Shown here: one piece after another, positions 2-26,597 of the stretch
How the letters are laid out: each line of letters starts with the position of its first letter
Position numbering within the stretch: the stretch's first letter is position 1
Assembly: GCA_020635655.1 (NCBI GenBank)
Contig: JACJZI010000009.1
Location: 79,456 to 143,455 of the forward strand
DNA length: 64,000 bases
Direction of reading: 5' to 3'
Origin: Flavobacteriales bacterium
GTDB lineage: Bacteria; Bacteroidota; Bacteroidia; Flavobacteriales_F; PHOS-HE28
Translations under genes and position numbers: made by a program
Notes under the pieces: generated by a model
Told to the model about the DNA's origin: nothing
The model's input: only the letters and a program-made list of their open reading frames with translations
Databases searched by the model: none

Positions 2-2038
2 GTGGGCTGCAACCTGGATGTGCGCGTAAAGGATGAAAAAGTGGTGGCCATCCGCGCACCCTACGACGCCGAGGCCAACAGCGGGCACACCTGCCTGAAG
101 GGCCGCTACGCCTTCAGCTTCTACGACCACCCCGACCGCCTGCGCACTCCGCTGATCAAGCGCGACGGGAAGTTCGAGGAGGCCACCTGGGACGAGGCCT
201 ACGACTTCATCGTGGACAAGCTCACCCAGCTGAAGAAGGACCACGGGCCGGACAGCATCGCCGGCATCAGCAGCGCGCGCACGCCCAACGAGGAGAACTA
301 CCTGATGCAGAAGTTCATGCGGGCGGTGATCGGCACCAACAACATCGACTGCTGCGCGCGCGTGTGCCACAGTCCCACCGCCCTGGGCATGCAGCGCACC
401 TACGGCACCGGCGCCGCCACCAACAGCATCGACGACCTGAAGGACACCGACACGATCATGGTGATCGGTGCCAACCCCACCGACGCACACCCGGTGACCG
501 GCGCCCGCATCAAGCAGCAGGTGATGAAGGGCAAGACGCTGATCGTGATCGATCCGCGGCGCATCGAACTGGCCCGCTATGCCAAGTACCACCTGCAGCT
601 GAAGCCCGGCACCAACGTGGCCCTGCTGAACATGATGATGCACTACATCATCGCCGAGGGCCTGGTGGACGTCGCCTTCATCGATGCGCGCACCGAGGGC
701 TGGGAGGAATTCCGCGACCAGCTGCTGGCGCTGGACATCGCCAAAATGGAACAGGTCACCGGCGTGGACCGGAATCTTGTGCGTGAAGCCGCCATCTCCT
801 ATGCGAAGAGCCCCGCGGCCATGAGCTTCCACGGACTGGGCGTCACCGAACATTCGCAGGGCACCTTCACCGTGATGCAGATCGCCGACCTGGCGATGAT
901 GACCGGCAACATCGGCCGGCGCGGCGTGGGCGTGAACCCGCTGCGCGGGCAGAACAACGTGCAGGGCGCGGCCGACATGGGCGCGCAGCCGCACCAGGGC
1001 GCCGGCTACTTGGACGTGACCAAGGAGGAGGCCAACAAACTGTACCAGGAGCACTACGGCGTGCCCGTGCCCAGCCACATCGGGTGGAAGATCCCCGAGA
1101 TGTTCAACGCCGCCATCGACGGCCGGCTGAAGGCGCTCTGGCTGATCGGCGAGGACGTTGTGCAGACGGACCCCAACACCAACAAGGTGATCAAGGCCAT
1201 GGACAGCCTGGAGCTGCTCGTGGTGCAGGAGCTCTTCATGACCGAGACGGCGAAGCATGCGGACGTTGTGCTGCCCGGCGCCAGCTTCCTGGAGAAGAGC
1301 GGCACCTTCACCAACGGCGAGCGCCGCGTGCAACGCGTGAACGCCGTGGTGGAACCGCTGGAGGGCACCAAGAGCGACGGCCAGATCATCGTGGACCTGA
1401 TGAACCGCATGGGTTTCGAACAGCCCGACTACCACCCCTCCTGGGTCCTCGAGGAGATCAGCCGCATCGTGCCCTTCTTCAAGGGCATCCGCTGGGAGAC
1501 CCTGGGTGAGAACGGCAAGCAATGGCCCGTGGCGGCGGACGGCACGGACACGCAGATCCTGCACACCGAGACCTTCAAGCGCGGCAAGGGCAAATTCTTC
1601 ATGCCGGAGTGGATCGAGAGCAAGGAGGTGGCCGCGCACGGGAAGGACTACCCCTACATCATCACCACCAACCGCGAGCTGGAGCACTACAACTGCGGTA
1701 CCATGACGCGCCGCACCCGCAACAACGACATCCTCACCGAGGACGTGCTGCTGATCCACCCGGACGATGCCGCCGCCAACGGCCTGGCCGAGGGCGATAT
1801 GGTCTGCGTGGAAAGCCCGCGTGGCAAGGTGGACATCAAGGCGCGCATCACCGACGAGGTGAAACCCGGCATCCTCTCCAGCACCTTCCATTTCCCGGAG
1901 ATCATGCTGAACATCATCACCAGTGATGTCCATGATACGGAGGCGCTCTGCCCCGAGTACAAGGTGGTGAGCTGCAGGATTAGGAAGGCCAAGAAGGGAC
2001 ATCTCCGCAGCCATGGGGAAGTGGTAAAGAAGAACTAA
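2..2038 (+). CDS. fdhA: Formate dehydrogenase alpha subunit (molybdopterin oxidoreductase), 5'-truncated by window edge
   Basis: 678-aa ORF open to the window start. It has MopB-family signatures (GHTCLKGRY, NNIDCCARVCHSPT active-site loop, C-terminal dinucleotide-binding domain). The active-site residue is Cys where FdhF has Sec. fdhD and Moco genes lie elsewhere in the window. Confidence 0.9.
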   Translation: MGCNLDVRVKDEKVVAIRAPYDAEANSGHTCLKGRYAFSFYDHPDRLRTPLIKRDGKFEEATWDEAYDFIVDKLTQLKKDHGPDSIAGISSARTPNEENYLMQKFMRAVIGTNNIDCCARVCHSPTALGMQRTYGTGAATNSIDDLKDTDTIMVIGANPTDAHPVTGARIKQQVMKGKTLIVIDPRRIELARYAKYHLQLKPGTNVALLNMMMHYIIAEGLVDVAFIDARTEGWEEFRDQLLALDIAKMEQVTGVDRNLVREAAISYAKSPAAMSFHGLGVTEHSQGTFTVMQIADLAMMTGNIGRRGVGVNPLRGQNNVQGAADMGAQPHQGAGYLDVTKEEANKLYQEHYGVPVPSHIGWKIPEMFNAAIDGRLKALWLIGEDVVQTDPNTNKVIKAMDSLELLVVQELFMTETAKHADVVLPGASFLEKSGTFTNGERRVQRVNAVVEPLEGTKSDGQIIVDLMNRMGFEQPDYHPSWVLEEISRIVPFFKGIRWETLGENGKQWPVAADGTDTQILHTETFKRGKGKFFMPEWIESKEVAAHGKDYPYIITTNRELEHYNCGTMTRRTRNNDILTEDVLLIHPDDAAANGLAEGDMVCVESPRGKVDIKARITDEVKPGILSSTFHFPEIMLNIITSDVHDTEALCPEYKVVSCRIRKAKKGHLRSHGEVVKKN

Positions 2039-2082
2039 TTGGGGCAACTACGGCAAATCATGGAGCGCTCTAGATTCGCATA

Positions 2083-2907
2083 ATGGATATTTTGTGGACA
2101 GGACCTGCGGTAAAAGCCGCATGGGACAATCGCGAAGACCTGGCAGACGGTTGGCAACGACTTCTGAACCTGCTACTTGGACGCAAAACTAGAATTGCGT
2201 TTACTGGCTTGCCCGGTGTTGGCAAGACCGTGCTTTTTGATTGCTTGACAGGCCCTGGGTTGCGTTCAACATATCAACCTCCAAAGACTGCTTCTGCTGA
2301 GGAAGATACAGGGACCATAAACGCCAAACGCAGAAGGATGGCGTTGACTGTGGTGCCTGGTCAAAGCGCTTCGACGACTCGTATGGACACCCTGGAGCAT
2401 CTCTTCGACGTAGAAAAACCCGTGGAAGGGGTAATACATGTTGTCTCCCATGGCTATATTGAGGTAAGGAACCTCGCAGCACGAGAAACGCTTGTGGCCT
2501 CGGGACTCAAGTCGATCGCGGACCTGCGTGCTCACTACCTGGCCCAGGAAATTGAAGATATCAAGGACTTGTGCCACAGAATGCGCAGATGCCATCAAGA
2601 CCAGAAACGGCGGCCGTGCTGGTTGATTGTCGCAGTAACCAAGGCTGATTTGTTTCCACACGAAATGTCCATTGTCCGTCCCTACTATTCACCTGAAAAT
2701 ACCAGCGCTTTTTCAGGAGTCTTGGACCAATTTCAAAGACAAGTTGGCGAGGACAATTTCTCATGGTCAGCGCTGCCTGTAGCTGGGCATCCACAAGACT
2801 TTGAATGGGGGGACGAAACAACAAAGTCGTCGATATCTGTCGAAGAACGGAATGCATATTTGCGTCAGTTCACGGCGGTAATTCAGAGTAAATGCTTGAC
2901 CAGATGA
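2083..2907 (+). CDS. Small GTPase-like P-loop NTPase, unassigned family (candidate defence sensor)
   Basis: 274-aa ORF. Walker A GLPGVGKT at nt 2206-2229, G3-like VVPGQ at 2350-2364, G4 TKAD in LIVAVTKADL at 2638-2649. No other domain recognised. Lies in low-GC DNA. Confidence 0.75.
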   Translation: MDILWTGPAVKAAWDNREDLADGWQRLLNLLLGRKTRIAFTGLPGVGKTVLFDCLTGPGLRSTYQPPKTASAEEDTGTINAKRRRMALTVVPGQSASTTRMDTLEHLFDVEKPVEGVIHVVSHGYIEVRNLAARETLVASGLKSIADLRAHYLAQEIEDIKDLCHRMRRCHQDQKRRPCWLIVAVTKADLFPHEMSIVRPYYSPENTSAFSGVLDQFQRQVGEDNFSWSALPVAGHPQDFEWGDETTKSSISVEERNAYLRQFTAVIQSKCLTR

Positions 2908-3359
2908 ACGACTCGAGAGAGCCATATAGCAATGCGACTGACCCGGCTTTCAAGCATTCGAAAGAAGATTTGAAAAGCCTCCTCGACCTGGCCGAGGAGA
3001 TTGAAGGGCGCCTAGAAAAGGCAACAACAAGGCTCAATCTGTCAATCGGCGGATTAGTAGTATATTCTATTGGGGGGACCGTCTTTGCCTTTTACCAAAC
3101 TCCTAGAGCTTTTCCTACCGAGTGGCATGGCCTGTTGTTCTTTTTCCTGTTCGTCATACTCATACTCATAGTTGCCTCGCCATTTCTTTTCCGCATGAAC
3201 AAGAAGCGCAAAACAGAAGCGCGTGCTTTGAATGAGGTACTAGAGGTACTTCATGAAGTCGAATCGGCAATTACGCAGAGAGATGCTTGGAGCGCTCTCG
3301 AAAGAGCTGAGTTCCGGATTCGACTTTCAAGATTTGCTGTACGCAACCGCATGAGGTAG
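2904..3359 (+). CDS. Small 2-TM membrane protein coupled to the GTPase-like gene
   Basis: The ATG at 2904 overlaps the upstream TGA (ATGA). An alternative ATG is at 2892. Two hydrophobic helices (LSIGGLVVYSIGGTVFAFY and GLLFFFLFVILILIVASPFLF) are flanked by charged helical segments. Confidence 0.7.
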   Translation: MNDSREPYSNATDPAFKHSKEDLKSLLDLAEEIEGRLEKATTRLNLSIGGLVVYSIGGTVFAFYQTPRAFPTEWHGLLFFFLFVILILIVASPFLFRMNKKRKTEARALNEVLEVLHEVESAITQRDAWSALERAEFRIRLSRFAVRNRMR

Positions 3360-3588: not shown

Positions 3589-3736
3589 GTGTAAAGGCCT
3601 AGGTTGCCCGCCCTGAGCTTGTCGAAGGGTTTGTGTGTGCCCCCTTGCAAATACCTCGGGGTCGCGCTTTTCGCTACAATTCCTCGCCGGATTACCGACT
3701 CCGGGCTTTCCGCTTCAATCGCTCACGCGAGATGCG

Positions 3737-5443
3737 TCAAGAGTGCAAACGTTCCTCAAGCGCCTTGACCAATGCATCGATTGACCCTCTTCGTCCTTCG
3801 ATAAGACTTTCGAGCCCGGCAGCGGCGGCACAATTTGAAACAATACCCTTGACCTGCGACTCGACCGATTTCGACCACTCCTTCCCTTGATCTTTGCAGT
3901 TCAGTTTCATTCTGTCTGACCAGCTTCCTTTGCTCGTCCTCATGATTGATGGCTTGTATTCAACTCGCAAGTCAGACAATAGCCGGGCCTGATATATCTC
4001 TGGCTTGATGAAGTCCTCTAGCTCAGAGTCATTGAACCCTTTCGCGCTCGCTAGGTGATACTCAGAATGGTCCAATGTCCCTTGGTCAAGTGCCAGCTCA
4101 ATGGCCTTCCTTCCGGCCTGGTCATTATCCAAGAAAGCATGGACGCCACACAGATAGCTCTTGTGCAGGCGCACCTTATAGCCAAGGTTTGACGCTCCAA
4201 CCAAAGGATCAATCGACAGGTTACCATCAGCAAGTGCTCTACCAACGTCCTTTGACAACAAGGGAAGCCATGCCCTCAATACCTGTTCGTCCTCCTTGCC
4301 CTCGCAAACCAATATCAGACTGGCAGTTGCAAGGTTATCAGCAATACGTACCCCTAGCGCATCCCTCACCGCACTGATATGACCAGCCGGAGCAGCCTTG
4401 CCCTTCTGCACAATGATGTTCCTGCTTGGGTGGTACCGATCAACAAGTACAGGCGAGTGGGTGGTGAGGATAACCTGATGACTCTTGGCGATATCGGCTA
4501 GTACCTCTCTGAGCCGGTGAATTGCTCGAGGATGCAGATGTGATTCAGGTTCTTCGATTGCGAGAATTAAGCCCTTTGTGCCGAGTGATCGCTGACTGAC
4601 ATGCCGTAAGAGCGAAATGGCCGTAAGACTCTTGATTCCGTCCCCCTTCATCTCAAGCTCTGTTTCAGTTCCGTCATTTACCAGTACCCGCGCTGACCTA
4701 CGCAGGGCGCGGGAGATACCGCCACCCGACTTAAGGGTTACGCTCCTGACCTCGGGGATGAAGCTTGCAACCATCGTAGTGAGCTCATTGCTAAGCGACT
4801 CTAGTATTGGTCGCTGAATCTCTTCAATGCTCTTCACAAGCTCGCGATACTCCTCCTTTGCTTCAAGCTGTGCAAGTTCCCGTGCCAGTAGATCCTCGAC
4901 GACCCGTTCTGCCATATCTGAGGGCCGAAGGGCGGGTATGTATTGAATGTCTAGTCGCTCGTTGACGAATCGCGCCATCTCTTCTTTCCATTGATCTGCC
5001 TGCGGCCGCTTTGTCAGCTTCGTCTTGGCCTTTCCGGGCAGTACAATATCCAGCAGGGCATCACTTGATCCACAAGAGAGTTTGAGTTTGAGGTTCGTGG
5101 CCAACTGAATCTTGACCTTCCTATTGAAAGCCGTCAGCTCTGCAGCAGTCAGCTCAAACTCCAAGATGAATTCCGACCTGCCATCTGGATAGTCCTTCTG
5201 GGATTGTACTGGATAATCTCGCTTCCAATCGTATGTGTTCTCACCATAGGCATACCTCAGCTGGCGCTGAGCTCGGAAGTAACGTGAACGCGATAGCAAG
5301 CCCAGCGAGAGGACCATTGCTTTCAGAACATTCGACTTCCCCTCATTATTCGGCCCAACCAGCACCGCGAAGTCTCCAAGTGGGAGCTTATACGCCTTTG
5401 TGATGGAGCGATAATCGCTCACGGTGAATGTCACGAGTTTCAT
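3737..5443 (-). CDS. OLD-family nuclease (ABC-type ATPase + TOPRIM), stand-alone
   Basis: 568 aa. Walker A GPNNEGKSN near the N-terminus, Walker B/D-loop LAIEEPESHLHP, TOPRIM glutamate motif LILVCEGKEDE and DxD motif FLDNDQAG. GC about 52% in the hand-counted 4401-4500 sample. Confidence 0.85.
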   Translation of the reverse strand: MKLVTFTVSDYRSITKAYKLPLGDFAVLVGPNNEGKSNVLKAMVLSLGLLSRSRYFRAQRQLRYAYGENTYDWKRDYPVQSQKDYPDGRSEFILEFELTAAELTAFNRKVKIQLATNLKLKLSCGSSDALLDIVLPGKAKTKLTKRPQADQWKEEMARFVNERLDIQYIPALRPSDMAERVVEDLLARELAQLEAKEEYRELVKSIEEIQRPILESLSNELTTMVASFIPEVRSVTLKSGGGISRALRRSARVLVNDGTETELEMKGDGIKSLTAISLLRHVSQRSLGTKGLILAIEEPESHLHPRAIHRLREVLADIAKSHQVILTTHSPVLVDRYHPSRNIIVQKGKAAPAGHISAVRDALGVRIADNLATASLILVCEGKEDEQVLRAWLPLLSKDVGRALADGNLSIDPLVGASNLGYKVRLHKSYLCGVHAFLDNDQAGRKAIELALDQGTLDHSEYHLASAKGFNDSELEDFIKPEIYQARLLSDLRVEYKPSIMRTSKGSWSDRMKLNCKDQGKEWSKSVESQVKGIVSNCAAAAGLESLIEGRRGSIDALVKALEERLHS

Positions 5444-5491
5444 CTCAGCAGTTGTTCGGATACGTGTATGTTGAATTCAATCGCACGAATT

Positions 5492-5836
5492 CTACAACCT
5501 ATCATACTTCGTCGCCACCCCTTTCGCCTTCTCGACGGGGTACTTGGCGGCGTTCTTCCGCAGCTTCTGGCGCACGGCCGTTCCCAGATCCAGGTCCAGA
5601 TCATGGGCCAGATAGGTGAGCAGGATGGCAATATCCGCCATCTCCTCTGCCAGGGCATCGCGGTGCTCTTGGGCCAGGGCTTGCAGGTCGGCGTCCTTGG
5701 CCCATTGGGTGTGCTCCATCAGCTCGGCGGCTTCCAGGGCAATGCTCGTGCTCAGGGTCCGCAGGTTGTGGAACTGCTCCCAATCGCGCTCCTTCCGGAA
5801 GGCCAGCAGTTCATTGCGCAGTTCGTCGCTCAGCAT
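5492..5836 (-). CDS. MazG-like nucleotide pyrophosphohydrolase (DCTPP1-type, single domain)
   Basis: 114 aa. Metal-binding EAAELMEH and EEMADI motifs in a four-helix MazG-type layout. GC about 64%. Confidence 0.8.
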   Translation of the reverse strand: MLSDELRNELLAFRKERDWEQFHNLRTLSTSIALEAAELMEHTQWAKDADLQALAQEHRDALAEEMADIAILLTYLAHDLDLDLGTAVRQKLRKNAAKYPVEKAKGVATKYDRL

Positions 5837-5848
5837 GGGTCAGGGTGT

Positions 5849-6778
5849 TCATCCAACGAAACGTTCATTGTGCCAGCTCAGGAACTCGGGGTCGGGTCGC
5901 TGGCTGTCCAGTTTGGGGATCACGGCCAGCGGCTGGTCGTGCAGGCGGTAATAGGCCTTGCCGTTGTACCACTGCTCCTTGATGCGGTCGCTCACGCGTA
6001 TCCGCAGCTCGGGCGTCACGGTCACCAGCCCCGCATCGAAGAGCTTGTGAAAGTCAGAGCGCAGCAGCATGCCATTGGAGATGCGGTGCGGCCCACCGCT
6101 CGCGTACGACTTGATATGTGCCGCTTCGAGCACCGGCAAGGTGGATTCACCGGTAATGGCACAACGCTTCTGGTACGCCTCGCCCACCAGGATCTGGAAA
6201 GACCCCTGGCCCAGGCGGGCTCTGGTCAGGAAGAGCTCGCCGTAACGCGGTCCGCCATATTCCGCGGCCGGCTCCGCCACCAGATCTTGGACGGCCTTGT
6301 TCTGCAATCGTTCCTGCACCGCATTCCAAAGCCACGCGCCTTCGCTGGTCTCCGTATCGTAGGTCTGTCCCTTCACAATGTTCGGCGCCCAGTTGGGAAG
6401 TTGTATCCAGTTCATGCGCTCGAAGAAGAACGGCTGCACCAGCACGCTGCACCCGATCTCCAACACCTCACGCGGCCCGGAGGACAACCGGCGGATGCGC
6501 TTCTCCACTTCCAGGTATGTGGCCGCCCCGTTCTTCTCGCCGAATGCTTCCCACGCCATGTTCAGCGGCAGCTTCGAGAAGTTCACGAAGTAGCCGCCGC
6601 CTGCAATGCAATTGTGCGGAGCCTTCAGCTTGAAAAGAAAGGGCGTTCCAGCGGGCAGCGTCGTGAAGGGTGCTTTGCCGCTCGGCTGCCAGAAGTTCAC
6701 CTCATCGAAGTCCCGCTCCGAAAGGAAGGTGTACCAATCAAAGTCCGTGACGCCGGCCCAGAACTTCATGCATACCAA
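5849..6778 (-). CDS. HNH_2-type endonuclease with unassigned N-terminal domain (putative restriction-like enzyme)
   Basis: 309 aa. The C-terminal CAITGESTLPVLEAAHIKSY...NGMLLRSDFHKLFDAGLVTV matches the HNH_2 (PF13391-type) signature. The N-terminal ~190 aa are not recognised. An alternative start is at 6769. Confidence 0.75.
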   Translation of the reverse strand: MVCMKFWAGVTDFDWYTFLSERDFDEVNFWQPSGKAPFTTLPAGTPFLFKLKAPHNCIAGGGYFVNFSKLPLNMAWEAFGEKNGAATYLEVEKRIRRLSSGPREVLEIGCSVLVQPFFFERMNWIQLPNWAPNIVKGQTYDTETSEGAWLWNAVQERLQNKAVQDLVAEPAAEYGGPRYGELFLTRARLGQGSFQILVGEAYQKRCAITGESTLPVLEAAHIKSYASGGPHRISNGMLLRSDFHKLFDAGLVTVTPELRIRVSDRIKEQWYNGKAYYRLHDQPLAVIPKLDSQRPDPEFLSWHNERFVG

Positions 6779-6813: not shown

Positions 6814-7146
6814 CTACCCCAACCCATTCTCCCTGGCCCACAGCACCAGGGCCACCTGGCCGCGGATGCCGTAGCGCTCGAAGATGCGCGTGCGCCACCT
6901 GCTGAGGGTGCCGGGGCATACGTGCATGCGGTCGCAGATCTCCTTGCCGGTGAGGCCCACATCCCGCGCACGGTCTCCGCCTCGGGACCCCGCGCCAAGG
7001 AGCAGCACCCCAGGGTCCACTTCGTGTGAACCTGCGGGAAAGCCAGGGTGCGCAGCCAGGAAAAGCGCGTACCTTCCCTTATGCGTCCGATCTATCTTGC
7101 TTGTCTCGCGATCTGCCAAACGCCCTACATCCCGATCATCGGGCAA
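6814..7146 (-). pseudogene. LuxR/GerE-type HTH C-terminal fragment (possible gene remnant or small regulator)
   Basis: The C-terminal GLTGKEICDRMHVCPGTLSRWRTRIFERYGIRGQVALVLWARENG fits the GerE HTH pattern. No receiver or sensor domain is present. The upstream part overlaps the divergent T9SS gene and contains a 40-nt repeat. Confidence 0.3.
6961..7000. repeat. 40-nt repeat, copy 1 (atcccgcgcacggtctccgcctcgggaccccgcgccaagg)
   Basis: 37/40 identity with 8672-8711 in direct orientation. Contains the imperfect palindrome ggtctccgcctcgggacc. Confidence 0.8.
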
Positions 7147-8649: not shown

Positions 8650-8671
8650 GCATGCGGGACCTGGGTCTCAG

Positions 8672-8711: not shown

Positions 8712-8721
8712 CTCATTCCTT

Positions 8722-18720: not shown

Positions 18721-18741
18721 GGCCCCGAAGTTCGATCGATC

Positions 18742-19230: not shown

Positions 19231-19260
19231 GTGTTTGGGGTCCGGTCGCAAGCTGGCACC

Positions 19261-19282
19261 CGATCCTGAACGGATCCTGGAT
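19261..19282. promoter_or_regulatory. Tandem 11-bp direct repeat cGATCCTGAAC GGATCCTGGAT upstream of the PepSY-like gene
   Basis: The same two 11-mers occur in swapped order at 21236-21257, upstream of the response regulator operon. An 11-bp period fits OmpR/PhoB-type sites. Confidence 0.4.
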
Positions 19283-19286
19283 GCGG

Positions 19287-20540
19287 TCAGGCCTCGGACA
19301 CCCGCAAGGTGTGCAGCCCGTCGGCGTGGTCGTAGCGGATGCGCCAGCCAGCCCCTTCCACGATCTCGCGGGCGATGGAAAGGCCCAGGCCCACGCTGCG
19401 GCCGCTCGGATCGGCCTGCGCGAAACGTTCGAACAACGTTCCGGGATCGACCGTGAGCGGCGCTCCGGAATTGGCGATGCGGAATCCTTCGCGCGTGATG
19501 GTGATCGTGATCCGCCCGCCGGGCCTGTTGTGTTGCACCGCGTTGCGCACCAGGTTGCCCACGAGCACCTCGGCCAGCATCGGATGCAGCCGCAACGTAC
19601 AAGGTCCGGTCGCGTCGATCGTCGCGGTGATCCGCTGGTCCGCGATCGGCCCTTCCAACAGTTCCAGTTGTTCGCGGAACAACGCCGGCCAGTCCACCAT
19701 GGCGGGCGGGAATTCCTGGTTGCCGATGCGGGCGAGCAGCAGCATGTTGGATACCGTGCGGCCCAGTCGTTCGCGTGCATCCAGCAGGCCCGCGAGCATG
19801 GTGGAACGCTCCTCATCGAGCCCGGGCATCTGGAGCAGCTCGTCCAATTTCCCCTGCATCACCGCCAGCGGCGTGCGCAGCTCGTGCGCGGCCTTTTCAG
19901 TGAAGCGTTTCTGCGCGGTCATGTCCGCCTGGATGCGGGCCATCATCCGCTCCAGCGCGGCGGCCAACGTGTCGAACTCGTCCGTGCCGGAGCGGGGCAG
20001 GTCGGGGATGGTGGAGACGTCCGCACGGAAGGTTCCCGTGGCGTCCACGATGCGGTGGAAGGGGCGCCAGAGCCGGTCGGCCGCCCAGCGGAAGAGCAGG
20101 AGATTGCCCACCAACAGCAACACCAGCAGGACACCCATCGTCCCGGCGATGGCCATCACCAGGTCCTCGGTCTCCACGAGACTGCGTCCCACCAACAGTA
20201 CTTGTGGTCCCCGCATCCCATCGGGCATGGGGAACCGTGCAATGCGCCAGGGCACCAGCTCGCCCTCCTCGTCCGTGTCGGCGATCAGCGTGTCGGCGAA
20301 GACCGGCTGTGCGCTGCGCCCGCTCCGCAGCAGGAGCAGTTGGTCCGGCGCCGTGGTCGGAGGCAGCGACTGTCCGTTCATGATGGCCGCGCGCACGCGC
20401 TCCGCATGATGCACGAGGAATTCGTCCACCTGGTCCTTCACGATGGCATTCACCAGCAGGTAGCCGAGCAACGTGCCCACCACGGCCACGGGAAGCGCCA
20501 GGGCCAGTTGGTAGCGGGCGGTGCGTTGCAGCAGCTTCAT
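19287..20540 (-). CDS. Sensor histidine kinase (2 TM, HAMP, HisKA, HATPase_c)
   Basis: I set the start at the ATG at 20540, which overlaps the regulator stop (ATGA). H-box HELRTPLAVMQG and G-box GLGLSIAREIVE. Confidence 0.9.
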   Translation of the reverse strand: MKLLQRTARYQLALALPVAVVGTLLGYLLVNAIVKDQVDEFLVHHAERVRAAIMNGQSLPPTTAPDQLLLLRSGRSAQPVFADTLIADTDEEGELVPWRIARFPMPDGMRGPQVLLVGRSLVETEDLVMAIAGTMGVLLVLLLVGNLLLFRWAADRLWRPFHRIVDATGTFRADVSTIPDLPRSGTDEFDTLAAALERMMARIQADMTAQKRFTEKAAHELRTPLAVMQGKLDELLQMPGLDEERSTMLAGLLDARERLGRTVSNMLLLARIGNQEFPPAMVDWPALFREQLELLEGPIADQRITATIDATGPCTLRLHPMLAEVLVGNLVRNAVQHNRPGGRITITITREGFRIANSGAPLTVDPGTLFERFAQADPSGRSVGLGLSIAREIVEGAGWRIRYDHADGLHTLRVSEA

Positions 20541-21217
20541 GGCTGCGACACGAACTTGTAGCCGATGCCGTAAACCGTGCGGATGTGGTCGCGGCAACCC
20601 TTGTCGGCCAGTTTCTTGCGCAGGTTCTTCAGGTGCGAATACAGCATGTCGTTCTGGTCGAAGCGTTCACCCAGGTCGCCCCAGACATGCTCCACGATGG
20701 CGCTGCGCGACAGCACCCGGTCCGTGTTGGCCACCAGGAACAGCAGCAGGTCCATCTGCATGGCGGTCAGCTCCACCGGCGCACCGTTCACCTCCACGCG
20801 CCGCTCCTCCGGCAGCACGCGCAACTCGTCCAGCTCGATCGCCCGGCGCCCGCGGAACCGTTTGCGCCGGAGCAGCGCCCGCAGGCGCGCCACCAGCTCC
20901 GGCAGGTGGAAGGGTTTGGCCAGGTAGTCATCGGCACCGAGGTCCAGGCCGTGCACCTTGTCGTCCAGCGATCCCTTCGCGGAGATGATCAGCACACCGG
21001 TCGACGGATCACGCTCGCGCAGGGCGCGCACGATCTCCAGACCCGATCCGCCGGGAAGTGTGATGTCCACGAGCACGGCATCATAGTCGTGCGCAGCGAC
21101 CTTCTCCCGAGCGGAAGGCAGGTCCGTGGCCGTCTCCACGAGGAAGCCCACGTCGGTCAGGTAGTTGTGCAACGACCGGCGCAGCTCCGGCTCGTCCTCG
21201 ATCACGAGCAGTTTCAC
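20537..21217 (-). CDS. OmpR/PhoB-family response regulator
   Basis: Receiver domain (VIEDEPEL...DAVLVDITLPG) plus a winged-helix C-terminus (TVYGIGYKF). Confidence 0.92.
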   Translation of the reverse strand: MKLLVIEDEPELRRSLHNYLTDVGFLVETATDLPSAREKVAAHDYDAVLVDITLPGGSGLEIVRALRERDPSTGVLIISAKGSLDDKVHGLDLGADDYLAKPFHLPELVARLRALLRRKRFRGRRAIELDELRVLPEERRVEVNGAPVELTAMQMDLLLFLVANTDRVLSRSAIVEHVWGDLGERFDQNDMLYSHLKNLRKKLADKGCRDHIRTVYGIGYKFVSQP

Positions 21218-21235
21218 CCCTGCAAGCTAGGTGGC

Positions 21236-21257
21236 GGATCCTGGATGGATCCTGAAC
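21236..21257. promoter_or_regulatory. Tandem 11-bp direct repeat GGATCCTGGAT GGATCCTGAAC upstream of the RR-HK operon
   Basis: Lies 19-40 nt upstream of the regulator start codon. A weaker third unit ggatccttcct is at 21303-21313. Matches the units at 19261-19282. Confidence 0.4.
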
Positions 21258-21327
21258 GATGGCATCGCGACACGAACGCCGGATGCCGGACCGAGCTCGG
21301 TTGGATCCTTCCTGATGAAGCGCTCGC

Positions 21328-22050
21328 TCACTCCACCACCACCTGCCGCACGTACCGCTGCCCACCCTGCTCCAACACCAGGTTGTACACCCCGGAAGCC
21401 ACATCCTGAAGCGGGATCGTCAACCGGCCCTCGCCTTTGCGCCGCTGCATCTGAACGCCGCGCATGTCGATGAGATCCGCCGACCAATCGCCCGGTGGAA
21501 GGTCGATCAGCACGAGCCGGTTCGTGGGATCCGCGTGGATCACGGGTGCCTGGACCGCTCGATCGCGGATGCCGGTGGTCTGGGTGGTGTCGCACCCCTG
21601 CGCCGGCGCCTGCCCATAGTCGAACACCACCGAGGTGCAGGGGAATTGCTGGAACCATCCGTTGGGATCCACGATGTCGGCCGTGGGTGCGTACCACACC
21701 GCATCGAAAGGCCCGCTGCCCCAACCGGTGGTATCGAGATTCACGATCAGGTGGGCACCGTCCTTCAGGCCGATCTCGGTGCTGATGAGGTAGTTCGACC
21801 CCATGGGATCGATGATCACGGTACCGCCCGGTTCCACCCAGACCGAGTTCTCGGCACCCGTGAGGTAGAGGGTGTCGCCCCCGCATACCCAGAAGCAGGT
21901 ATAGCCCGCATCCTGTGTGGTGGTGCTCGAGACCACGATGGTTGAGGGACTGATCGTCGTGGCGCATCCGCTCAGGACGAAACTGCCGCATTGTTGACCA
22001 TGGGCTGATAGCGCGAGCGGCACGAGCAGGGAGGCGGTGAGCGTTCTCAT
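21328..22050 (-). CDS. Small secreted protein with T9SS C-terminal sorting domain
   Basis: I trimmed to the ATG at 22050 (MRTLTASLLVPLALSAHGQ signal). T9SS-type tail ...GVYNLVLEQGGQRYVRQVVVE. Confidence 0.8.
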   Translation of the reverse strand: MRTLTASLLVPLALSAHGQQCGSFVLSGCATTISPSTIVVSSTTTQDAGYTCFWVCGGDTLYLTGAENSVWVEPGGTVIIDPMGSNYLISTEIGLKDGAHLIVNLDTTGWGSGPFDAVWYAPTADIVDPNGWFQQFPCTSVVFDYGQAPAQGCDTTQTTGIRDRAVQAPVIHADPTNRLVLIDLPPGDWSADLIDMRGVQMQRRKGEGRLTIPLQDVASGVYNLVLEQGGQRYVRQVVVE

Positions 22051-22097
22051 GGGAGCCTGTTGTGCGATCAAATTAGCGAACCATCCGCACACCGCAA

Positions 22098-22250
22098 CTA
22101 GCGCTTCCTGCTCGCCTTGGCCTCCGGGTTGAACGCCAGGCAGCGGTCGATCCAAAACTCGAGGTCGGATTCGGAATCGTAGCCCGAGGGTTCGATGCGG
22201 AGGTAACCGAACATGGGCTGGAATGGACGGTCACCAGGTCGAGGTGTAGC
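22098..22250 (-). pseudogene. 3' fragment of a tfoX-like gene (duplicate of the 3' end of 26250-26597)
   Basis: Encodes ...GYLRIEPSGYDSESDLEFWIDRCLAFNPEAKASRKR, versus GYLRIDPAGYDSEADLEFWIDRCLAFNPEAKASRTRVG in the intact gene. A 54-nt core (22107-22160 vs 26265-26318) matches 52/54. No N-terminal half is present. Confidence 0.85.
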
Positions 22251-22327: not shown

Positions 22328-23719
22328 CTATTCCTTGACCATGGCCAACGTGGTTCTCGAACCACCTATCGCCGTGCATAGATAGAGGCCCGGAGCCAAC
22401 ATGGATGCATTCCAACGGACCTGGGTGCGACCATTGACCGGTATTCGCTCCAATTCCCGACCAGAAACATCCTGGATCAGAAGCATATCGTAGTCATGTC
22501 CTTGTGCCATAGCTATCGTTACCTCGTTCGTGAACGGAACTGGTGTGAGCATCAGGTCGCTCGGGCGATCATGTTCCTCGATCGATACGCTTCCCGCTTG
22601 TTCCCAATACACATAGTCCCCGTCGTCATAGATGCCCAATAGTATGTCCAGGTCACCATCGCCATCCAGGTCGGCAACGCTCAGATATTCCGTTTGTCCG
22701 ATATTCGGATCCGTCAGCCCCGGCAATGCCGCGTGTGCCTGAAAGAACGGTGCTTGCGCCGTGCCCACGTTCTGGAAATAGGCCAGACTGTCGTAGCCGG
22801 CCAGCAGAAGGTCCTCGTCACCATCCGCATCCAGGTCAATGAAGGCGTGAGCATCCGTGGCGATATTCCCAAGGGATAACCCGAACGGATCCAGCACCGA
22901 TGGACCGAAGGACGGGTTCATGGCAGAACCGATATTCTCATAGTAGATCATGTCGGTATGGTAGGTATCATCGTTGTATTGTGAGATCACGAGATCGAGG
23001 TCCCCATCACCATCCAGATCGACCAAGGAAGGCTGGCCACCGAATTCATAGATCGTGATCGGCGCCAGGCCGAACGGATCTGTTTGTTCATTACCGAATG
23101 CCGGAGACATCGCACTGCCGATGTTCTCCACATAGATGAAATAGCTCATGTCGTACACCGTGGTATCTTCAGCCAGGATCAGCAGATCCTGATCACCGTC
23201 CCCATCGAGGTCCGCGAATACCGGGAGCAGAGATTGACGGCTAGTGTTCTGTCCGAAGCTTGTCGCATCCAATCCGAACGGATCGTTGACGATTGATCCG
23301 AACGAGGGGTTCTGCGCCGTGCCGATATTGGGTTGGAAGCGGATCGAACTGTCGTTGTAATCGGCAGTGAAGAGGTCCAGGTCCGAATCGCCATCGATGT
23401 CGACCAATTGACAGAATGGCGCATACAAGTCGTAGGAATAAGGGATCACCATACCGAAAGGGTGCATCACGGGTGGAAGAAAGCTCAGCGATTGCGCACG
23501 GGTCGATGTAGTGCTCGTGCACAATGTCACCGCAACGCAAGAACTAAGGAGCAATTGCCGCTTGGTCCATGCATCGAGCCCGGCCCACTGCCGGGCCAGC
23601 CGCGAACGAATTCGGAGGACCTGTTCCGGGCTTTCAGCTCGACCGACCATGCGATCGATCTTCCGGCACAGCCCTTTGATCTGACGGCGTATCCTGGCAT
23701 TGTATCGCTGCGTTCTCAT
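22328..23719 (-). CDS. FG-GAP/VCBS repeat protein with T9SS C-terminal sorting domain
   Basis: Repeated DLDGDGD.DL motifs and a T9SS tail. It has an unusually long basic N-terminal region before the hydrophobic signal segment. The start overlaps the upstream stop by 4 nt. Confidence 0.85.
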   Translation of the reverse strand: MRTQRYNARIRRQIKGLCRKIDRMVGRAESPEQVLRIRSRLARQWAGLDAWTKRQLLLSSCVAVTLCTSTTSTRAQSLSFLPPVMHPFGMVIPYSYDLYAPFCQLVDIDGDSDLDLFTADYNDSSIRFQPNIGTAQNPSFGSIVNDPFGLDATSFGQNTSRQSLLPVFADLDGDGDQDLLILAEDTTVYDMSYFIYVENIGSAMSPAFGNEQTDPFGLAPITIYEFGGQPSLVDLDGDGDLDLVISQYNDDTYHTDMIYYENIGSAMNPSFGPSVLDPFGLSLGNIATDAHAFIDLDADGDEDLLLAGYDSLAYFQNVGTAQAPFFQAHAALPGLTDPNIGQTEYLSVADLDGDGDLDILLGIYDDGDYVYWEQAGSVSIEEHDRPSDLMLTPVPFTNEVTIAMAQGHDYDMLLIQDVSGRELERIPVNGRTQVRWNASMLAPGLYLCTAIGGSRTTLAMVKE

Positions 23720-24876
23720 GGTCTCCGGTTTGAGGTGGGTCGGGGCGCCCAGAAGGTCTGTTCGGGCGTGGATAGTCCGTTCAAATGGTCCCTGCTCAAC
23801 GTGTTCAAGATGTTCGGCCTTAGCAGATCCGGAAGTACGTGCACGTCATAGATCTCCTCTACGGAAGCTTGATAATGGATCCGTCCCAATTCACGGCCCG
23901 AACGTAGATCGATGATGGCCAGACCGGCATGTGCGTTCGCGATATTGGACCCGAGCGTTCCAAAGGAACTGGAGTCCTTTCGAATGGAAGAAAGACCAAC
24001 GAACAAGTGGTCCTTGTGCAAGGACAATCCGCGCACGAAACCATTCAGCCGGATGATCGGTCGTATCGCACCTGTGCGCCGGTCCACTTCCACCACTTCG
24101 CCAGTGGCGGACAGGAGCAGGTAGAGCCGGTCCTCATGAATCCGGGGTGAATGGGGCATGGCCAATCTAGATGCCAGGATCTCGTTCGTGGATACGTCCA
24201 TCAGTACACCCGAGCCGGGTATCGTGCTTCGCCAGCTTTTAGGCATATCACCCGTGCCGAACGCCGTCACGTACTTCGGCAGGCCCTTGTCCATGGCCAG
24301 TCCGTTCAGGTGGCATCGATCGCCTGAGGCGATGCTTGAGATGTACGGCGGTCTCCAATAAGGGTTGAAGTTGTGGTCCGTGCCGATAGTGGCCAGGCAA
24401 CTGAACGCCGTGATCACCCCGTGAAGGACCCCGCTCTGATCGAACGCAAGATCGTGCAGATCGACCGGTCCGGTATGAAAGGTGACCCTCGGCATGAAGA
24501 GCGTATCGTAGGTATCCGGCTTGTTCGGATAGTGCGATGCAAGGCTCTTCGACCCTGCAAAGCGGATCACCTCCTCCTCACATGCCAGTGCCATACGCCC
24601 TGTGGAATAGGCCAAACCCATGGCCTTCTTGAACGTACGCGTCAGTTGGACCAGTCCGCCACCGGCTGCCGGTGAAATGAAAATCACTTTGCCGGCCTGG
24701 TAAGTGGTCAGCGCTACTGAGCAACCCAGCGCAGCGAGTGTCTCAGGTACCGCTCTGTCGTAAGAACAGGCAAAGGGTTTCGTCGTTCCTGCCATACCGG
24801 GCACTATCAAATCTATGTCCGGATGACCTAAGTTCAAATGCCACATTGGCGCCCCTGTTCCAGGTCGGCCGATCAC
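23716..24876 (-). CDS. TIGR03032-family conserved hypothetical protein (beta-propeller-like)
   Basis: The N-terminal FACSYDRAVPETLAALGCSVALTTYQAGKVIFI matches the STYQAGK-type signature I recall for TIGR03032/DUF4915. The family has no known function. Confidence 0.7.
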   Translation of the reverse strand: MIGRPGTGAPMWHLNLGHPDIDLIVPGMAGTTKPFACSYDRAVPETLAALGCSVALTTYQAGKVIFISPAAGGGLVQLTRTFKKAMGLAYSTGRMALACEEEVIRFAGSKSLASHYPNKPDTYDTLFMPRVTFHTGPVDLHDLAFDQSGVLHGVITAFSCLATIGTDHNFNPYWRPPYISSIASGDRCHLNGLAMDKGLPKYVTAFGTGDMPKSWRSTIPGSGVLMDVSTNEILASRLAMPHSPRIHEDRLYLLLSATGEVVEVDRRTGAIRPIIRLNGFVRGLSLHKDHLFVGLSSIRKDSSSFGTLGSNIANAHAGLAIIDLRSGRELGRIHYQASVEEIYDVHVLPDLLRPNILNTLSRDHLNGLSTPEQTFWAPRPTSNRRP

Positions 24877-24986
24877 AAGGCTAGATCCCGTGCAAGATCT
24901 CCGCTCCGAGGTCGATCGTCCGACAATGGTCTATCCGGCATTCGCGGTGGACAATACCCTTACTTTCACAGAACAACCCGTCCGGT

Positions 24987-26243
24987 TTGTCAGGAACTAG
25001 TGGTCCCACCTCTGCCCAAGGCAGCAGGATGTCCAAGCTGTCCAGCTATTTCTCGGCGATACCGGACCACATAGACATCCGGAATTACCGCTTCTATCTC
25101 GTTGGACACGTTGCCTACCACTTCGCCCTGACCGTTCACACGATGTGGGCGGTCCTGTTCACGATCGTGGGAGTTCTCCCCCTGGCGGTATTCAACTTGT
25201 TCAGCATCTCATTGTTCGTTCTGTGCATCTATCTGAACCGCCGGGGCAAGCATATGACCCCCACCGTTCTGGGCATGACGGAGGTGGTCGCGCATCAGGT
25301 GTTCGCGTGCCACCTTCTGGGCACGGGGTCCGGCTACCAGCTCTATATCCTGGTTGTTTCGCTGTATCCCTTCATCATGCCTTCCTGGAAGGCCTGGATC
25401 AAAGTGGGCCTCTTTCTGTTCACCCTTGCTGGGTTCCTTTACATCCAAATGGCGATCAGCGCGGGAACGCCCTTGGTCACATTGGACCCCGTGCTGCTCC
25501 GATGGTTGATGATCACGAACATCATCTTCAGCTTCGTATGCCTGGGTATCTGGGGCACCTACTTCAACTTGGCCGTGGATCGGACGGAAGCGGAACTGGA
25601 CGGTGCTTACAGCAAGGTGGAGAACCTGTTGCTGAACGTCCTACCGGCCCCGATCGCGGAACGGTTGAAGGAAAAAGAACGGGTGATCTCCGATCGTTTC
25701 TCGGATGCCTCCATCCTGTTCGCCGACCTGGTCGGGTTTACGCGTTTCTCGGAACGTATGCCACCCGATGAGCTGGTCGCTATCCTGAACACCTACTTCA
25801 CCGCGTTCGACGATCTGGCAGAAAAGCACGGACTTGAAAAGATCAAGACCATTGGGGATGCTTACATGGTGGCGGCCGGTGTGCCCCAGCCCGATCCAGG
25901 CCATGCGCATCGCATGTGCGCCTTCGCTCTGGAGATGCTCGCGGTCCTGCAACGATGTAATGTGGAATTGGGCCATGCGCTCGAACTTCGGATCGGTACG
26001 CACTGCGGTCCTGTGGCCGCCGGCGTCATCGGCACCCACAAGTTCGCCTACGATCTGTGGGGCGATACGGTGAACACCGCCTCCCGGATGGAGTCGCATG
26101 GCGTAGGTGGCAAAGTCCATGTGACCGAGGAGCTATACCAAGCCTGTCGCAATGCCTATTCCTTCGAAGAACGTGGTGTCATCGAAGTGAAAGGGAAAGG
26201 TCCAATGAGGACATACTTCCTTCGTGGCTCTGGGCCCGCTTGA
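24987..26243 (+). CDS. Membrane-anchored class III adenylate cyclase
   Basis: About 6 N-terminal TM helices, then a CYCc domain: ILFADLVGFT, KIKTIGDAYMVAAG, WGDTVNTASRMES. An alternative start is at 25029. Confidence 0.88.
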   Translation: MSGTSGPTSAQGSRMSKLSSYFSAIPDHIDIRNYRFYLVGHVAYHFALTVHTMWAVLFTIVGVLPLAVFNLFSISLFVLCIYLNRRGKHMTPTVLGMTEVVAHQVFACHLLGTGSGYQLYILVVSLYPFIMPSWKAWIKVGLFLFTLAGFLYIQMAISAGTPLVTLDPVLLRWLMITNIIFSFVCLGIWGTYFNLAVDRTEAELDGAYSKVENLLLNVLPAPIAERLKEKERVISDRFSDASILFADLVGFTRFSERMPPDELVAILNTYFTAFDDLAEKHGLEKIKTIGDAYMVAAGVPQPDPGHAHRMCAFALEMLAVLQRCNVELGHALELRIGTHCGPVAAGVIGTHKFAYDLWGDTVNTASRMESHGVGGKVHVTEELYQACRNAYSFEERGVIEVKGKGPMRTYFLRGSGPA

Positions 26244-26249
26244 TCATCC

Positions 26250-26597
26250 CTACCCTACCCTTGTCCTGCTCGCCTTCGCCTCCGGGTTGAACGCCAGGCA
26301 GCGGTCGATCCAGAACTCCAGGTCGGCCTCGCTGTCATAGCCGGCGGGGTCGATGCGGAGATAGCCCTTCATCGGACGGCCACCGTGCACCATCTGCGTG
26401 GCACCTTCACGCTTCGTCAGCTGCTCCACCGCGTCCGGCCCCACGCGTGCCATGAGCCCGCCCTGGTAGAAGCCGATGCACATCTTGTCATCGACCATGT
26501 AGCAGTAGCCGCCGAACATCTTCTTGCCGACCCACTGCACCCTGCGCCGGTGCAGGGCCTTGTCGATGCGCTCGAGGAGGTATTCGTCGACGGGCAT
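26250..26597 (-). CDS. TfoX N-terminal domain protein
   Basis: I trimmed to the ATG at 26597. KKMFGGYCYMVDDKMCIGF is typical of the TfoX_N domain. Confidence 0.8.
   Translation of the reverse strand: MPVDEYLLERIDKALHRRRVQWVGKKMFGGYCYMVDDKMCIGFYQGGLMARVGPDAVEQLTKREGATQMVHGGRPMKGYLRIDPAGYDSEADLEFWIDRCLAFNPEAKASRTRVG

Follow-up and report, generated by a model that had tools for sequence, protein, structure and literature searches.

Accessory genes between intact genes and displaced copies of their 3' ends in an uncultured Flavobacteriales-type bacterium

Hotspots for defence and toxin-antitoxin (TA) genes often lie between core genes without a sign of any mobile element, and how genes enter them is an open practical question. 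Core defence hotspots free of integrases are known from hotspot surveys of Pseudomonas and E. coli, and the minimal mobile elements of Neisseria are reportedly similar; to our knowledge, displaced gene-end copies inside the slot have not been reported in descriptions of either. Campbell-type single-crossover insertion-duplication, familiar from insertion-duplication mutagenesis in pneumococcus, and homology-facilitated illegitimate recombination, which is said to occur in natural transformation, are known chiefly as laboratory outcomes. In insertion with long target duplication (ILTD) of restriction-modification (RM) genes, cassettes of less than 20 kb that encode no transposase or integrase (Nobusato et al. 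2000; Furuta et al. 2010, PMC2853133) lie between direct repeats of 46-423 bp, of which the empty-site strain has a single copy, and at times these repeats overlap the 3' end of a gene, the cargo being lower in GC and carrying defence genes (PMC2853133).

In a stretch of 64,000 nucleotides (the window) from an uncultured Flavobacteriales-type bacterium, and elsewhere in its 3.07-Mb, 85%-complete genome assembly, we find a recurrent layout in which accessory genes have an intact gene on one side and, on the other, a displaced copy of that gene's last 65-230 bases. The accessory genes are defence, toxin and secreted-protein genes. From sequence comparison, we put at roughly 0.6 the probability that foreign DNA was acquired by a recombinase-free, homology-anchored route and left the duplicated gene ends as scars, and comparison with sister genomes suggests scars of a known kind of event rather than a new mobile-element family. 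A preliminary description of the window had noted the layout at fdhA and tfoX, with a weaker third case, and had read it as lower-GC, recombinase-less cargo bounded by the duplicated end of a core gene. The tfoX duplication, the GC of the cargo and the lack of a recombinase in it stand, while the fdhA duplication is weaker than written, the third case falls away and "core gene" is overstated: fdhA is present in 19 of 41 relatives, and the tfoX-like gene is without a close orthologue in the other species of the genus. As to interpretation, a recurrent recombinase-free layout tied to gene gain is borne out and reaches beyond the two loci, whereas the proposed family of trans-mobilised elements is not upheld.

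The tfoX and fdhA loci in the window

The 3' end of the intact tfoX-like gene (26264-26366) recurs at 22106-22208 with 86% identity over 103 nt, or 84% over 112 nt in a longer alignment. This is the sole second copy in the assembly, the peptides matching at 34 of 40 residues (E 2e-18 in a genome-wide search). Cargo 2 lies between the copies (22328..26243), and GC is 0.53-0.59 across 22300-26200 and 0.47-0.53 across 2040-5450 at fdhA, versus 0.62-0.69 around them. A 35-nt patch is identical between the two tfoX copies (0 expected by chance), and by three-way alignment with L040 the copies are reciprocal chimeras around it. The stop-proximal part of the remnant (22098 to ~22160) matches the empty-site genomes, with KR* as its native tail (P0005, the empty-site protein, has KASRKR at its C-terminus), and its upstream part (~22161-22250) is a foreign allele, ~78% identical; the intact gene is host-like down to the patch and carries a foreign tail, TRVG*, beyond it. 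This reciprocity points to a crossover in which the resident gene recombined with a cargo-linked 3' fragment of a foreign tfoX, although three private synonymous changes beside the patch in the intact gene are explained by neither parent and count against this reading. The empty haplotype, in which a 240-aa gene directly follows tfoX, is found in eight contigs (L040-L047, 96-99% identical) and the occupied haplotype, with its 4-kb cargo, in the window and L058 (99.5% identical); the block flanking the remnant (22208..13454) is 99.3% identical to L040. A separate 2.6-kb insertion beside the intact gene is absent from L040-L047 and has no flanking duplication. No donor was found for the tfoX cargo, its closest cyclase homologues (68-73%) not lying beside tfoX, and no tfoX homologue with the tail TRVG was found.

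The duplication at fdhA is real (~1877-2038 versus 3440-3601) and frameshifted, and a blastn search for a second fdhA 3' copy returned nothing at E 1e-3. At the protein level, the fdhA end DSQAMCPDYELVSCLIRKGRK matches DTEALCPEYKVVSCRIRKAKK, the best non-self match in the genome (E 0.023 with the whole protein as query, 3e-5 with the last 60 aa), and collinear pieces in two other frames (FYIPEIML; GDLTQAGEVSVKA*), which imply two frameshifts, stretch the remnant to ~3440-3601. Nucleotide identity is ~72% over 128 aligned nt, and the remnant is nearer to the other allele type of the genus ("SSVSDSLAMCP") than to the window's own intact end. The intact gene, which over the last 278 aa is 98% identical to that of the near-conspecific genome G041, rises from ~2% to 17% mismatches in its last ~200 nt; GC3 falls in the last 50-75 codons and overall GC from 0.64 to 0.52. 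Matching at only 56-60% and with two frameshifts, the remnant is far too diverged to be a recently displaced resident end and must therefore have travelled with the island, which counts against the reading that we prefer.

Directly beyond the remnant lies a Flavo-1-like repeat (RF01705 match at 3656-3733, minus strand, 32.9 bits, below the gathering score of 42), one of six copies in the genome. In G008 and G005 this flank comes after the stop of the intact fdhA, and in the window, G019 and G012 after the remnant; the scar adjoins the ancestral flank. The PADLOC search of cargo 1 (2083..3359) gave no match. Homologues of this cargo elsewhere adjoin RM and TIR genes, one of them in a thiC-bracketed cassette, and a tie of the GTPase cargo to fdhA elsewhere was rejected. 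The island part 3737..6778 is missing from G041 at the fdhA site, and identity to G041 resumes at 8717; 1860-8716 amounts to a whole-island swap relative to G041. The product of the last gene of the island is weakly similar to a paralogue at 11807-13450. The third case of the preliminary description was a direct repeat around this gene. The repeat exists (86% over 50 nt) and is a dispersed hairpin motif, CGCAGGGTC...GACCCTGCG, with no match in Rfam and with more copies at C8:14078, C2:104083 and C2:105686; since copies lie on C8 and C2, it is not a duplication made by insertion, and we rejected it as an att scar.

Features of the fdhA and tfoX loci, in window coordinates
Feature	Position	Strand	Evidence
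fdhA-type molybdopterin oxidoreductase, intact, 5' end outside window	2..2038	+	Pfam Molybdopterin, Molydop_binding, Fe4S4
Replaced, putatively foreign low-GC3 fdhA 3' segment, contiguous with cargo	1860..2038	+	mismatch and GC3 profile
Cargo 1: GTPase-like P-loop protein	2083-2907	+	weak MMR_HSR1 match (Pfam)
Cargo 1: membrane protein, overlaps GTPase-like gene	2892-3359	+	no PADLOC match
Displaced fdhA 3' remnant, two frameshifts, ends at own stop codon	3440..3601	+	protein/nt alignment
Flavo-1-like dispersed repeat, ancestral downstream flank of fdhA	3610..3735		Rfam RF01705
Variable island: OLD/GajA/AriA-like ATPase-nuclease	3737-5443	-	Pfam, PADLOC
Variable island: MazG-like	5492-5836	-	Pfam, PADLOC
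Variable island: HNH_2	5849-6778	-	Pfam, PADLOC
Dispersed hairpin motif, copy 1	6951..7000	+	repeat search
Secreted-protein gene, last gene of island (T9SS gene in the preliminary description)	7048..8649	+	no Pfam match
Dispersed hairpin motif, copy 2	8662..8711	+	repeat search
tfoX 3' remnant, chimera	22098..22250	-	three-way alignment with L040
35-nt identical patch, putative crossover site	22120..22154	-	alignment, matches 26278-26312
Cargo 2: FG-GAP repeat protein	22328-23719	-	Pfam
Cargo 2: DUF4915 protein	23716-24876	-	Pfam
Cargo 2: MASE7-class III nucleotide cyclase	24987-26243	+	Pfam
Intact TfoX_N-domain gene	26250..26597	-	Pfam and alignment
Separate insertion, 839-aa beta-propeller protein, T9SS sorting domain	26629..29253	+	Pfam Por_Secre_tail

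Recurrence in the genome and its relatives

Three more loci of this genome, pirin, crtI (two remnants) and thioesterase, have the layout. In a genome-wide scan, the last 60 aa of genes of 150+ aa served as queries and orphan copies within 15 kb were counted; of the same-strand matches 18 lay downstream and 4 upstream, and the opposite strand gave 1. The pattern is more than chance. The candidates C3:85506, C12:23773, the C12 repeat proteins, lepB (C22:76877) and the C20 secreted-protein genes with 99.8%-identical ends were rejected as paralogues or tandem copies. On C12, a gene end and a further 125 nt form a 225-bp unit present in 5.3 tandem copies, as unequal crossing-over between such repeats would produce, and most indels between the two haplotypes carry no duplication. 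Presence/absence polymorphism between near-identical genomes, proposed as a check in the preliminary description, exists at tfoX, pirin and thioesterase, G041 being without cargo at the latter two and also without the Doc and T9SS insert at crtI. The pirin remnant, contiguous with its native flank, has lost the stop and shows numerous non-synonymous changes in its coding part (dN/dS ~0.45). At crtI remnant 1 and at thioesterase the 3' end of the remnant is not host-like, so that extra events or a donor already carrying the layout are needed, and in this comparison the ppsA block adjoining the remnant is only 89% identical to G041. The clean reciprocal pattern is confined to tfoX; this and the crtI and thioesterase remnants weigh against homology-anchored acquisition.

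Among 16 fdhA loci examined (the window, 14 relatives and G041), seven have the duplicated end, and pirin shows it in three genomes of the genus (this genome, G003 and G005). Cargo differs among the fdhA loci (HicAB, PIN, two lipoproteins, GTPase plus TM) and its coupling to the gene stop is often tight or translational. The remnants start 136, 140, 158, 158, 179 and 219 nt before the stop, which gives four or more left boundaries. Lipoprotein cargo is homologous between G024 and G012 at only 29% identity, and the surrogate ends of the two are dissimilar (69%). The intact end and the remnant differ at 20% of nucleotides but 2 of 52 residues in G012, and at 9% of nucleotides but 1 of 59 residues in G019, almost wholly by synonymous changes (pS 0.73 and 0.35); having so few residue differences, the copies are two functional alleles brought together. 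A simple GC3 test marks the foreign copy clearly in the window, G012 and G005, and was dropped as a general marker because it gave no signal in G024, G011 and G019.

No integrase or transposase was found by Pfam in the cargo ORFs of the two window loci or of several relatives' fdhA loci, and the cargo at pirin, thioesterase and the crtI T9SS gene was judged from translations only. The PF00589 recombinase profile was run against 25 genomes and, for PF00239, the genome of the window was searched; in that genome only two Xer-like PF00589 genes and no PF00239 serine recombinase were detected; as the assembly is 85% complete, a recombinase could be missing from the data. PF00589 had no match on the fdhA contigs of G008 and G012, and its lone match on that of G011 is a fragment ~187 kb away (G019 and G024 were outside this search). 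No motif is common to the flanks of the 11 junction pairs inspected, and searches for a donor of any cargo found none, which weighs against the preferred reading. With no common junction sequence or structure, unrelated cargo and no candidate recombinase beyond the Xer-like pair, the small non-autonomous elements mobilised in trans that had been proposed find no support here. The left end of a homologous GTPase-RM cassette in a different genome still bears a thiC stub of 110 nt, in surroundings that are not those of thiC.

Origin of the duplicated gene ends

We propose that accessory genes would arrive on DNA in which they follow a foreign version of the final 65-230 nt of a conserved gene, this DNA being either circular or a linear fragment of a donor that already has the layout. 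A crossover within the common coding sequence would fuse the body of the resident gene with the incoming 3' end and so keep the gene intact, with cargo after its stop, while the resident 3' end would be displaced downstream, remain beside its original flank and decay. Islands formed in this way, scars included, would then be exchanged among strains by ordinary double crossovers in flanking genes. The layout, the empty sites, the scar beside the ancestral flank, the reciprocal tfoX chimera and the failure to find a recombinase or a common junction are observations. We infer RecA-type recombination as the joiner, and likewise the route of DNA entry and any circularity of the incoming molecule. 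Host-specific capture at gene 3' ends, also put forward in the preliminary description, would hold in this generic form, as homologous recombination anchored in a conserved gene, and in nothing beyond it.

The layout could instead reflect site-specific elements with a surrogate 3' end, of the type of e14 and phage 21 at icd, whose integrase has been lost or acts in trans (CIME-like). Such elements would leave the gene restored by the surrogate end and the native end displaced to the far side; the tfoX patch could be an att core, the differences between copies are mostly synonymous, as they are at icd/e14, and the thiC stub on the GTPase-RM cassette would fit. We consider this unlikely, since the cargo of the window loci and of the relatives' fdhA loci searched has no integrase, the genome has only Xer-like tyrosine recombinases and no serine recombinase, the junctions have no common motif, one target gene (fdhA) has its several left boundaries, and upstream of the patch the tfoX remnant retains ~90 nt of diverged homology to the gene, for which an att site has no need. 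In strict ILTD, a phenomenon documented for RM genes (PMC2853133), the resident 3' segment itself would be duplicated at cargo entry and the downstream copy would then decay. The pirin remnant, with its native flank, lost stop and non-synonymous changes, is what this predicts, and changes are mixed at G011 fdhA and crtI remnant 1; as a general account it is nevertheless very unlikely. At tfoX half of the remnant is 22% diverged beside a flank that matches the empty site at 99.3%, which cannot be decay, the fdhA copies of G012 and G019 differ almost only synonymously, and atypically low GC3 sits in the intact ends, not in the remnants.

The recurrence at fdhA and pirin, the enrichment of the cargo in TA and defence genes, often close-coupled to the gene stop, the tandem amplification on C12 and the thiC-bracketed cassette would all suit a dedicated cycle, in which TA, defence or secreted-protein cassettes with a gene-end mimic loop out as circles by way of their direct repeats, transfer, and re-insert into the same gene of new hosts, as RecA-parasitic mobile cassettes. 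We give it little credence, as no shared cargo turned up at a given gene across distant hosts, the G024 and G012 lipoprotein cargoes and surrogate ends are so dissimilar, and most haplotype indels are without any duplication. That the cassettes are recombinase-less yet self-propagating, the gene-end mimic (the last 100-200 nt) serving as their only "att site" and host homologous recombination re-inserting them, seems to us rather improbable; were it true, the 3' ends of fdhA, pirin and thiC would be integron-like capture platforms. Ordinary tandem duplication and subsequent decay, or a similarity due to chance or paralogy, fits some scan matches (the tandem paralogues on C3 and C12, lepB and the C20 genes) and is otherwise extremely improbable. 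No second cargo copy follows a remnant, near-identical genomes hold empty sites, the strand and side bias is 18 : 4 : 1 and the tfoX match is too strong (E 2e-18); this explanation is already contradicted at tfoX, fdhA, pirin and thioesterase by the empty-site comparisons, and tfoX and two fdhA relatives have diverged functional alleles rather than a decaying in-situ duplicate.

On the preferred reading, homology-anchored acquisition, the scars are legible: cargo would enter with a foreign copy of the end of the neighbouring gene, through a crossover inside coding sequence. The same genes bear such scars across the genus, and the scars differ between genomes that are 96-99% identical and offer a searchable signature of recombinase-free gene gain, namely a same-strand orphan gene end that lies downstream, beside the ancestral flank. 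They reveal no new enzyme and no new class of element, and they suggest that part of so-called "long target duplication" may be allele replacement, not duplication.

Comparison with described systems

As in ILTD, the inserts are flanked by direct repeats longer than 30 bp (65-230 nt at tfoX, fdhA, pirin, crtI and thioesterase), carry no transposase or integrase (by Pfam at the window and several fdhA loci, by translations elsewhere), and have counterparts with one repeat copy and no insert, in L040-L047 for tfoX, in G041 for thioesterase and pirin and, across species, in G008 and G005 for fdhA. Unlike ILTD, one repeat is often a foreign allele rather than a copy of the target (tfoX; fdhA in G012 and G019), an origin of both repeats from the resident being compatible with the pirin case; the repeats are always gene 3' ends, with the gene left intact; and the cargo is of TA, defence or secreted-protein genes, not RM genes, in a Flavobacteriales-like lineage.

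Campbell-type integration shares the single homologous anchor in a conserved gene, the duplication of that anchor and the reciprocal chimera, which is seen at tfoX and not at crtI remnant 1 or thioesterase, whereas the events here are natural and recurrent, with ~80-95% identity between partners. A surrogate 3' end, a restored frame and a displaced native end are also features of e14 and phage 21 at icd, of genomic islands at tRNA/tmRNA 3' ends and of CIMEs, which derive from these by loss of the integrase, but here there is no integrase and no fixed core, the boundaries vary, the cargo is tiny (0.3-10 kb) and no cognate autonomous element was found in this 85%-complete genome; nor do the 11 junction pairs have the conserved end sequences of CIME/IME-like elements. 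Integron cassettes differ in that the repeats here are gene ends, not attC-like inverted repeats, and no integrase was found beyond the Xer-like pair. With minimal mobile elements and defence hotspots the loci share varied cassettes in one slot, exchanged by flanking homology, as 1860-8716 compared with G041 illustrates. The loci are probably best described as homology-anchored, integrase-free insertion-duplication combined with island exchange, for which ILTD and Campbell-type integration are the nearest known systems.

The tfoX locus and a probable crossover within the gene end

Cargo lacking an integrase had been described as lying between an intact gene and a partial copy of its 3' end at both fdhA and tfoX, and at tfoX this duplication is solid: the two tfoX-like copies share 86% identity over 103 nt and 34 of 40 residues at the peptide level (E 2e-18), they contain a 35-nt patch that is 100% identical between them, and no third copy of this 3' end occurs elsewhere in the 3.07-Mb assembly. 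Measurement of GC along the window confirmed that the cargo is lower in GC than its surroundings, and none of the cargo ORFs carries a recombinase domain, as had been proposed. A comparison of strains for presence or absence was made through the tfoX protein cluster, which led to the near-conspecific genome G041 (GCA_020635675.1) together with seven contigs from metagenomes, at 96-99% identity to the window. G041 and all seven contigs have the empty site, in which the 240-aa gene that follows the remnant (the displaced partial copy) in the window lies directly after tfoX, while GCA_020635595.1 (99.5% identical) is in the occupied state. The sources of the empty haplotype were GCA_020635675.1, ERZ27309217, ERZ28655403 and SRR14234133, and that of the occupied one GCA_020635595.1.

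The key result came from a three-way alignment of the window's intact copy, its remnant and the empty-site sequence, whose protein has the C-terminus KASRKR. On the upstream side of the 35-nt patch it is the intact copy that matches the empty site, the remnant being an allele at 78% identity. On the downstream side the assignment is reversed: the remnant equals the empty site through its native tail KR* and on into the flank, which is 99.3% identical, and the intact gene runs into a foreign tail, TRVG*, and then into cargo; the foreign allele ends FGYLRIEPSGYDSESD...ASRTRVG*. This alignment indicates that the tfoX layout arose when the resident gene crossed over, inside the patch, with a foreign tfoX 3' fragment to which the cargo was joined; three private synonymous changes next to the patch are not accounted for by this reading. 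The imported DNA may have been circular (Campbell type), or linear if it came from a donor in which the layout already existed; no donor of it was identified.

fdhA in the window and its relatives

The proposed duplication of the fdhA 3' end is real but weak. It gave no match in blastn, and the last residues of FdhA have their best non-self match in the genome within the remnant (E 0.023 for the whole protein as query and 3e-5 for its last 60 aa); from there the homology continues, as collinear pieces in two further reading frames, through the remnant's own stop codon. At this locus the island of G041 is another one, of 2.4 kb, and it too includes a remnant. Divergence between the two genomes is ~2% along fdhA and 17% in its last ~200 nt, where the window has the low-GC3 version, and identity resumes at 8717, which indicates that everything from that gene end to 8716 was exchanged as a single block. 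The window's very diverged remnant is then a passenger from an earlier event.

Among relatives, a partial fdhA 3' end lies 340-670 nt past the intact gene at five of 14 loci and also in G041, bringing the total to 7 of 16 loci with the window included. The cargo comprises a PIN gene and a small ORF in G011, HicB/HicA in G019, distantly related lipoproteins in G024 and G012, and ~0.3 kb with no clear ORF in G003. Homology always ends at the stop codon, and its start varies from 136 to 219 nt before it. In G008 and G005 a Flavo-1-like repeat comes after the stop codon of intact fdhA; in the window, G019 and G012 it comes after the remnant instead. This places the remnant at the ancestral position, the cargo having come in ahead of it along with a new gene end. 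Intact end and remnant differ by 20% of nucleotides and 2 of 52 residues in G012, and by 9% and 1 of 59 in G019; each pair thus combines functional alleles of two diverged lineages and is no case of a duplicate in decay. The G012 remnant shares 86-87% identity with the fdhA ends of other species, against 77% with the intact end in G012 itself. The Flavo-1-like element itself (~110 nt) scores 32.9 bits, below the Rfam gathering score of 42. It has six copies in the window's genome, some of them arranged as inverted pairs with a spacing of 5-11 kb, is conserved immediately after fdhA in at least five species, and behaves like a dispersed intergenic repeat.

Just after its fdhA remnant, G012 has a CBASS-like set with a DncV/SMODS-type nucleotidyltransferase confirmed by Pfam and adjoining E2-like and membrane proteins that are putative, read from sequence. 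Across the genus, then, the fdhA flank serves as a defence island. The window's fdhA cargo is a pair of overlapping genes for GTPase-like and membrane proteins without a PADLOC match. Its homologues are rare (51 proteins) and lie beside RM and TIR genes, making it a candidate for an undescribed defence pair. In another MAG, a homologue of the GTPase (53%) with an ApaLI-type RM system lies between intact thiC and a 477-nt copy of the thiC 3' end (90% nt, 97% aa identity), and the signature is therefore not peculiar to the window's lineage. At another locus, L061, the same cassette lies behind a DUF488 gene, and the only thiC sequence ahead of it is the final 110 nt of that gene.

Further loci and general gene flux

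A genome-wide search for partial 3'-end duplications, based on rough gene calls, added pirin, crtI and a thioesterase gene to fdhA and tfoX. The last 60 residues of called genes of at least 150 aa were compared with sequence within 15 kb and outside called genes, yielding 18 matches downstream on the same strand, four upstream on the same strand and one on the opposite strand. Some were tandem paralogues or shared sorting domains and were removed. Four loci survived, fdhA among them, and tfoX, which falls below the length cut, is the fifth. In G041 the pirin and thioesterase cargo is absent, as is the Doc and T9SS insert at crtI, and a pirin paralogue in G003 and G005 shows the same layout. 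The pirin remnant is contiguous with native flank and the intact copy turns foreign at its stop codon, which fits the picture suggested for tfoX. Compared with G041, a host-like 3' half was not seen in crtI remnant 1 or the thioesterase remnant, so a donor already scarred, or further events, would be needed there; the ppsA block beside the latter is only 89% identical to G041. The Fic/Doc-family gene at crtI has no obvious antitoxin partner.

Features discussed, with positions in the window or on contigs (C) of its genome unless another locus (L) is named
Feature	Position	Remarks
fdhA remnant, best match	3472-3534	extended to ~3440-3601
Probable exchanged block	~1860-8716	fdhA end, GTPase-like/membrane pair, old remnant, Flavo-1-like repeat, OLD, MazG, HNH, secreted-protein gene
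GTPase-like/membrane-protein pair	2083-3359	
Flavo-1-like element	3610-3735	RF01705 match 3656-3733, minus strand
tfoX-like copies	26264-26366; 22106-22208	
pirin	C2:110472-111350	remnant 116541-116696, 83%; 5.2-kb cargo
crtI	C22:39506-41065	two remnants
crtI remnant 1	C22:41658-41745	93%; after Fic/Doc gene
crtI remnant 2	C22:43846-43910	86%; after T9SS-type gene
Fic/Doc-family gene	C22:41227-41643	between crtI and remnant 1
thioesterase	C22:192265-192717	remnant 182104-182334, 72%; 10-kb cargo
Secreted-protein gene ends	C20:42524-42974; 33355-33804	
225-bp repeat	C12:214876-216067	5.3 units
Hairpin motif	6951-7000; 8662-8711; C8:14078; C2:104083; C2:105686	
Indel sites (among seven)	26629-29253; 30320-30333; 11686-13453; 9546-9570 and 10265-10300	
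CBASS-like set, G012	L028 3310-6117	
thiC cassette, GCA_945861535.1	L059 1-5462	thiC, GTPase homologue, ApaLI-type methylase and endonuclease, thiC 3' copy

Two large secreted-protein genes on C20, 9 kb apart, have 3' ends that are 99.8% identical over at least 450 nt; the shared sequence stops one base past the stop codon, and the second copy has a 1-nt frameshift. On C12, a 225-bp unit consisting of the 3'-terminal ~100 nt of a DinB-like gene and 125 nt downstream is repeated at 98% identity, which shows that repeats of this kind recombine unequally; in the final unit the gene end is a different one, probably the original.

Over 37 kb, seven events of insertion, deletion or replacement separate the window from a 96-99% identical genome, and secreted beta-propeller (T9SS-type) genes are involved in several of them. 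Only two of the seven are scarred and most lack a flanking duplication, so the scars represent one visible result of a gene flux that is very high in general. A repeat flanking 7048-8649, put forward in the preliminary description as a third case, was rejected as an insertion scar, being a hairpin motif (CGCAGGGTC-N10-GACCCTGCG) that is also present on C8 and C2. Three of its copies run into a conserved GGTCCACTTCGTG box upstream of genes, and Rfam returned no match for it; it may serve secreted-protein genes as a leader or regulatory element.

Origin of the layout and comparison with known systems

A family of small elements mobilised in trans, as the preliminary description envisaged, would be expected to share junction sequence, and no common motif was found at the junction flanks of the window-genome loci or the fdhA relatives. 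The search for a cognate recombinase elsewhere in the genome (assembly 85% complete) found no PF00239 gene and only two PF00589 genes, whose scores and sizes are those of the Xer pair present in every relative; near fdhA, no integrase matches were found among the relatives searched. The layout is best explained by recombinase-free import of foreign DNA anchored by homology, which would leave the resident gene end displaced, followed by exchange of whole islands through ordinary flanking homology.

The closest described phenomenon is the insertion with long target duplication of RM genes (PMC2853133), three of whose four features are found here. In that system both repeats are copies of the target, but this does not hold at tfoX and in two of the fdhA relatives. 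Integration of the e14 or phage 21-icd type has the surrogate gene end in common with the present loci, but its integrase and fixed core are both lacking here.
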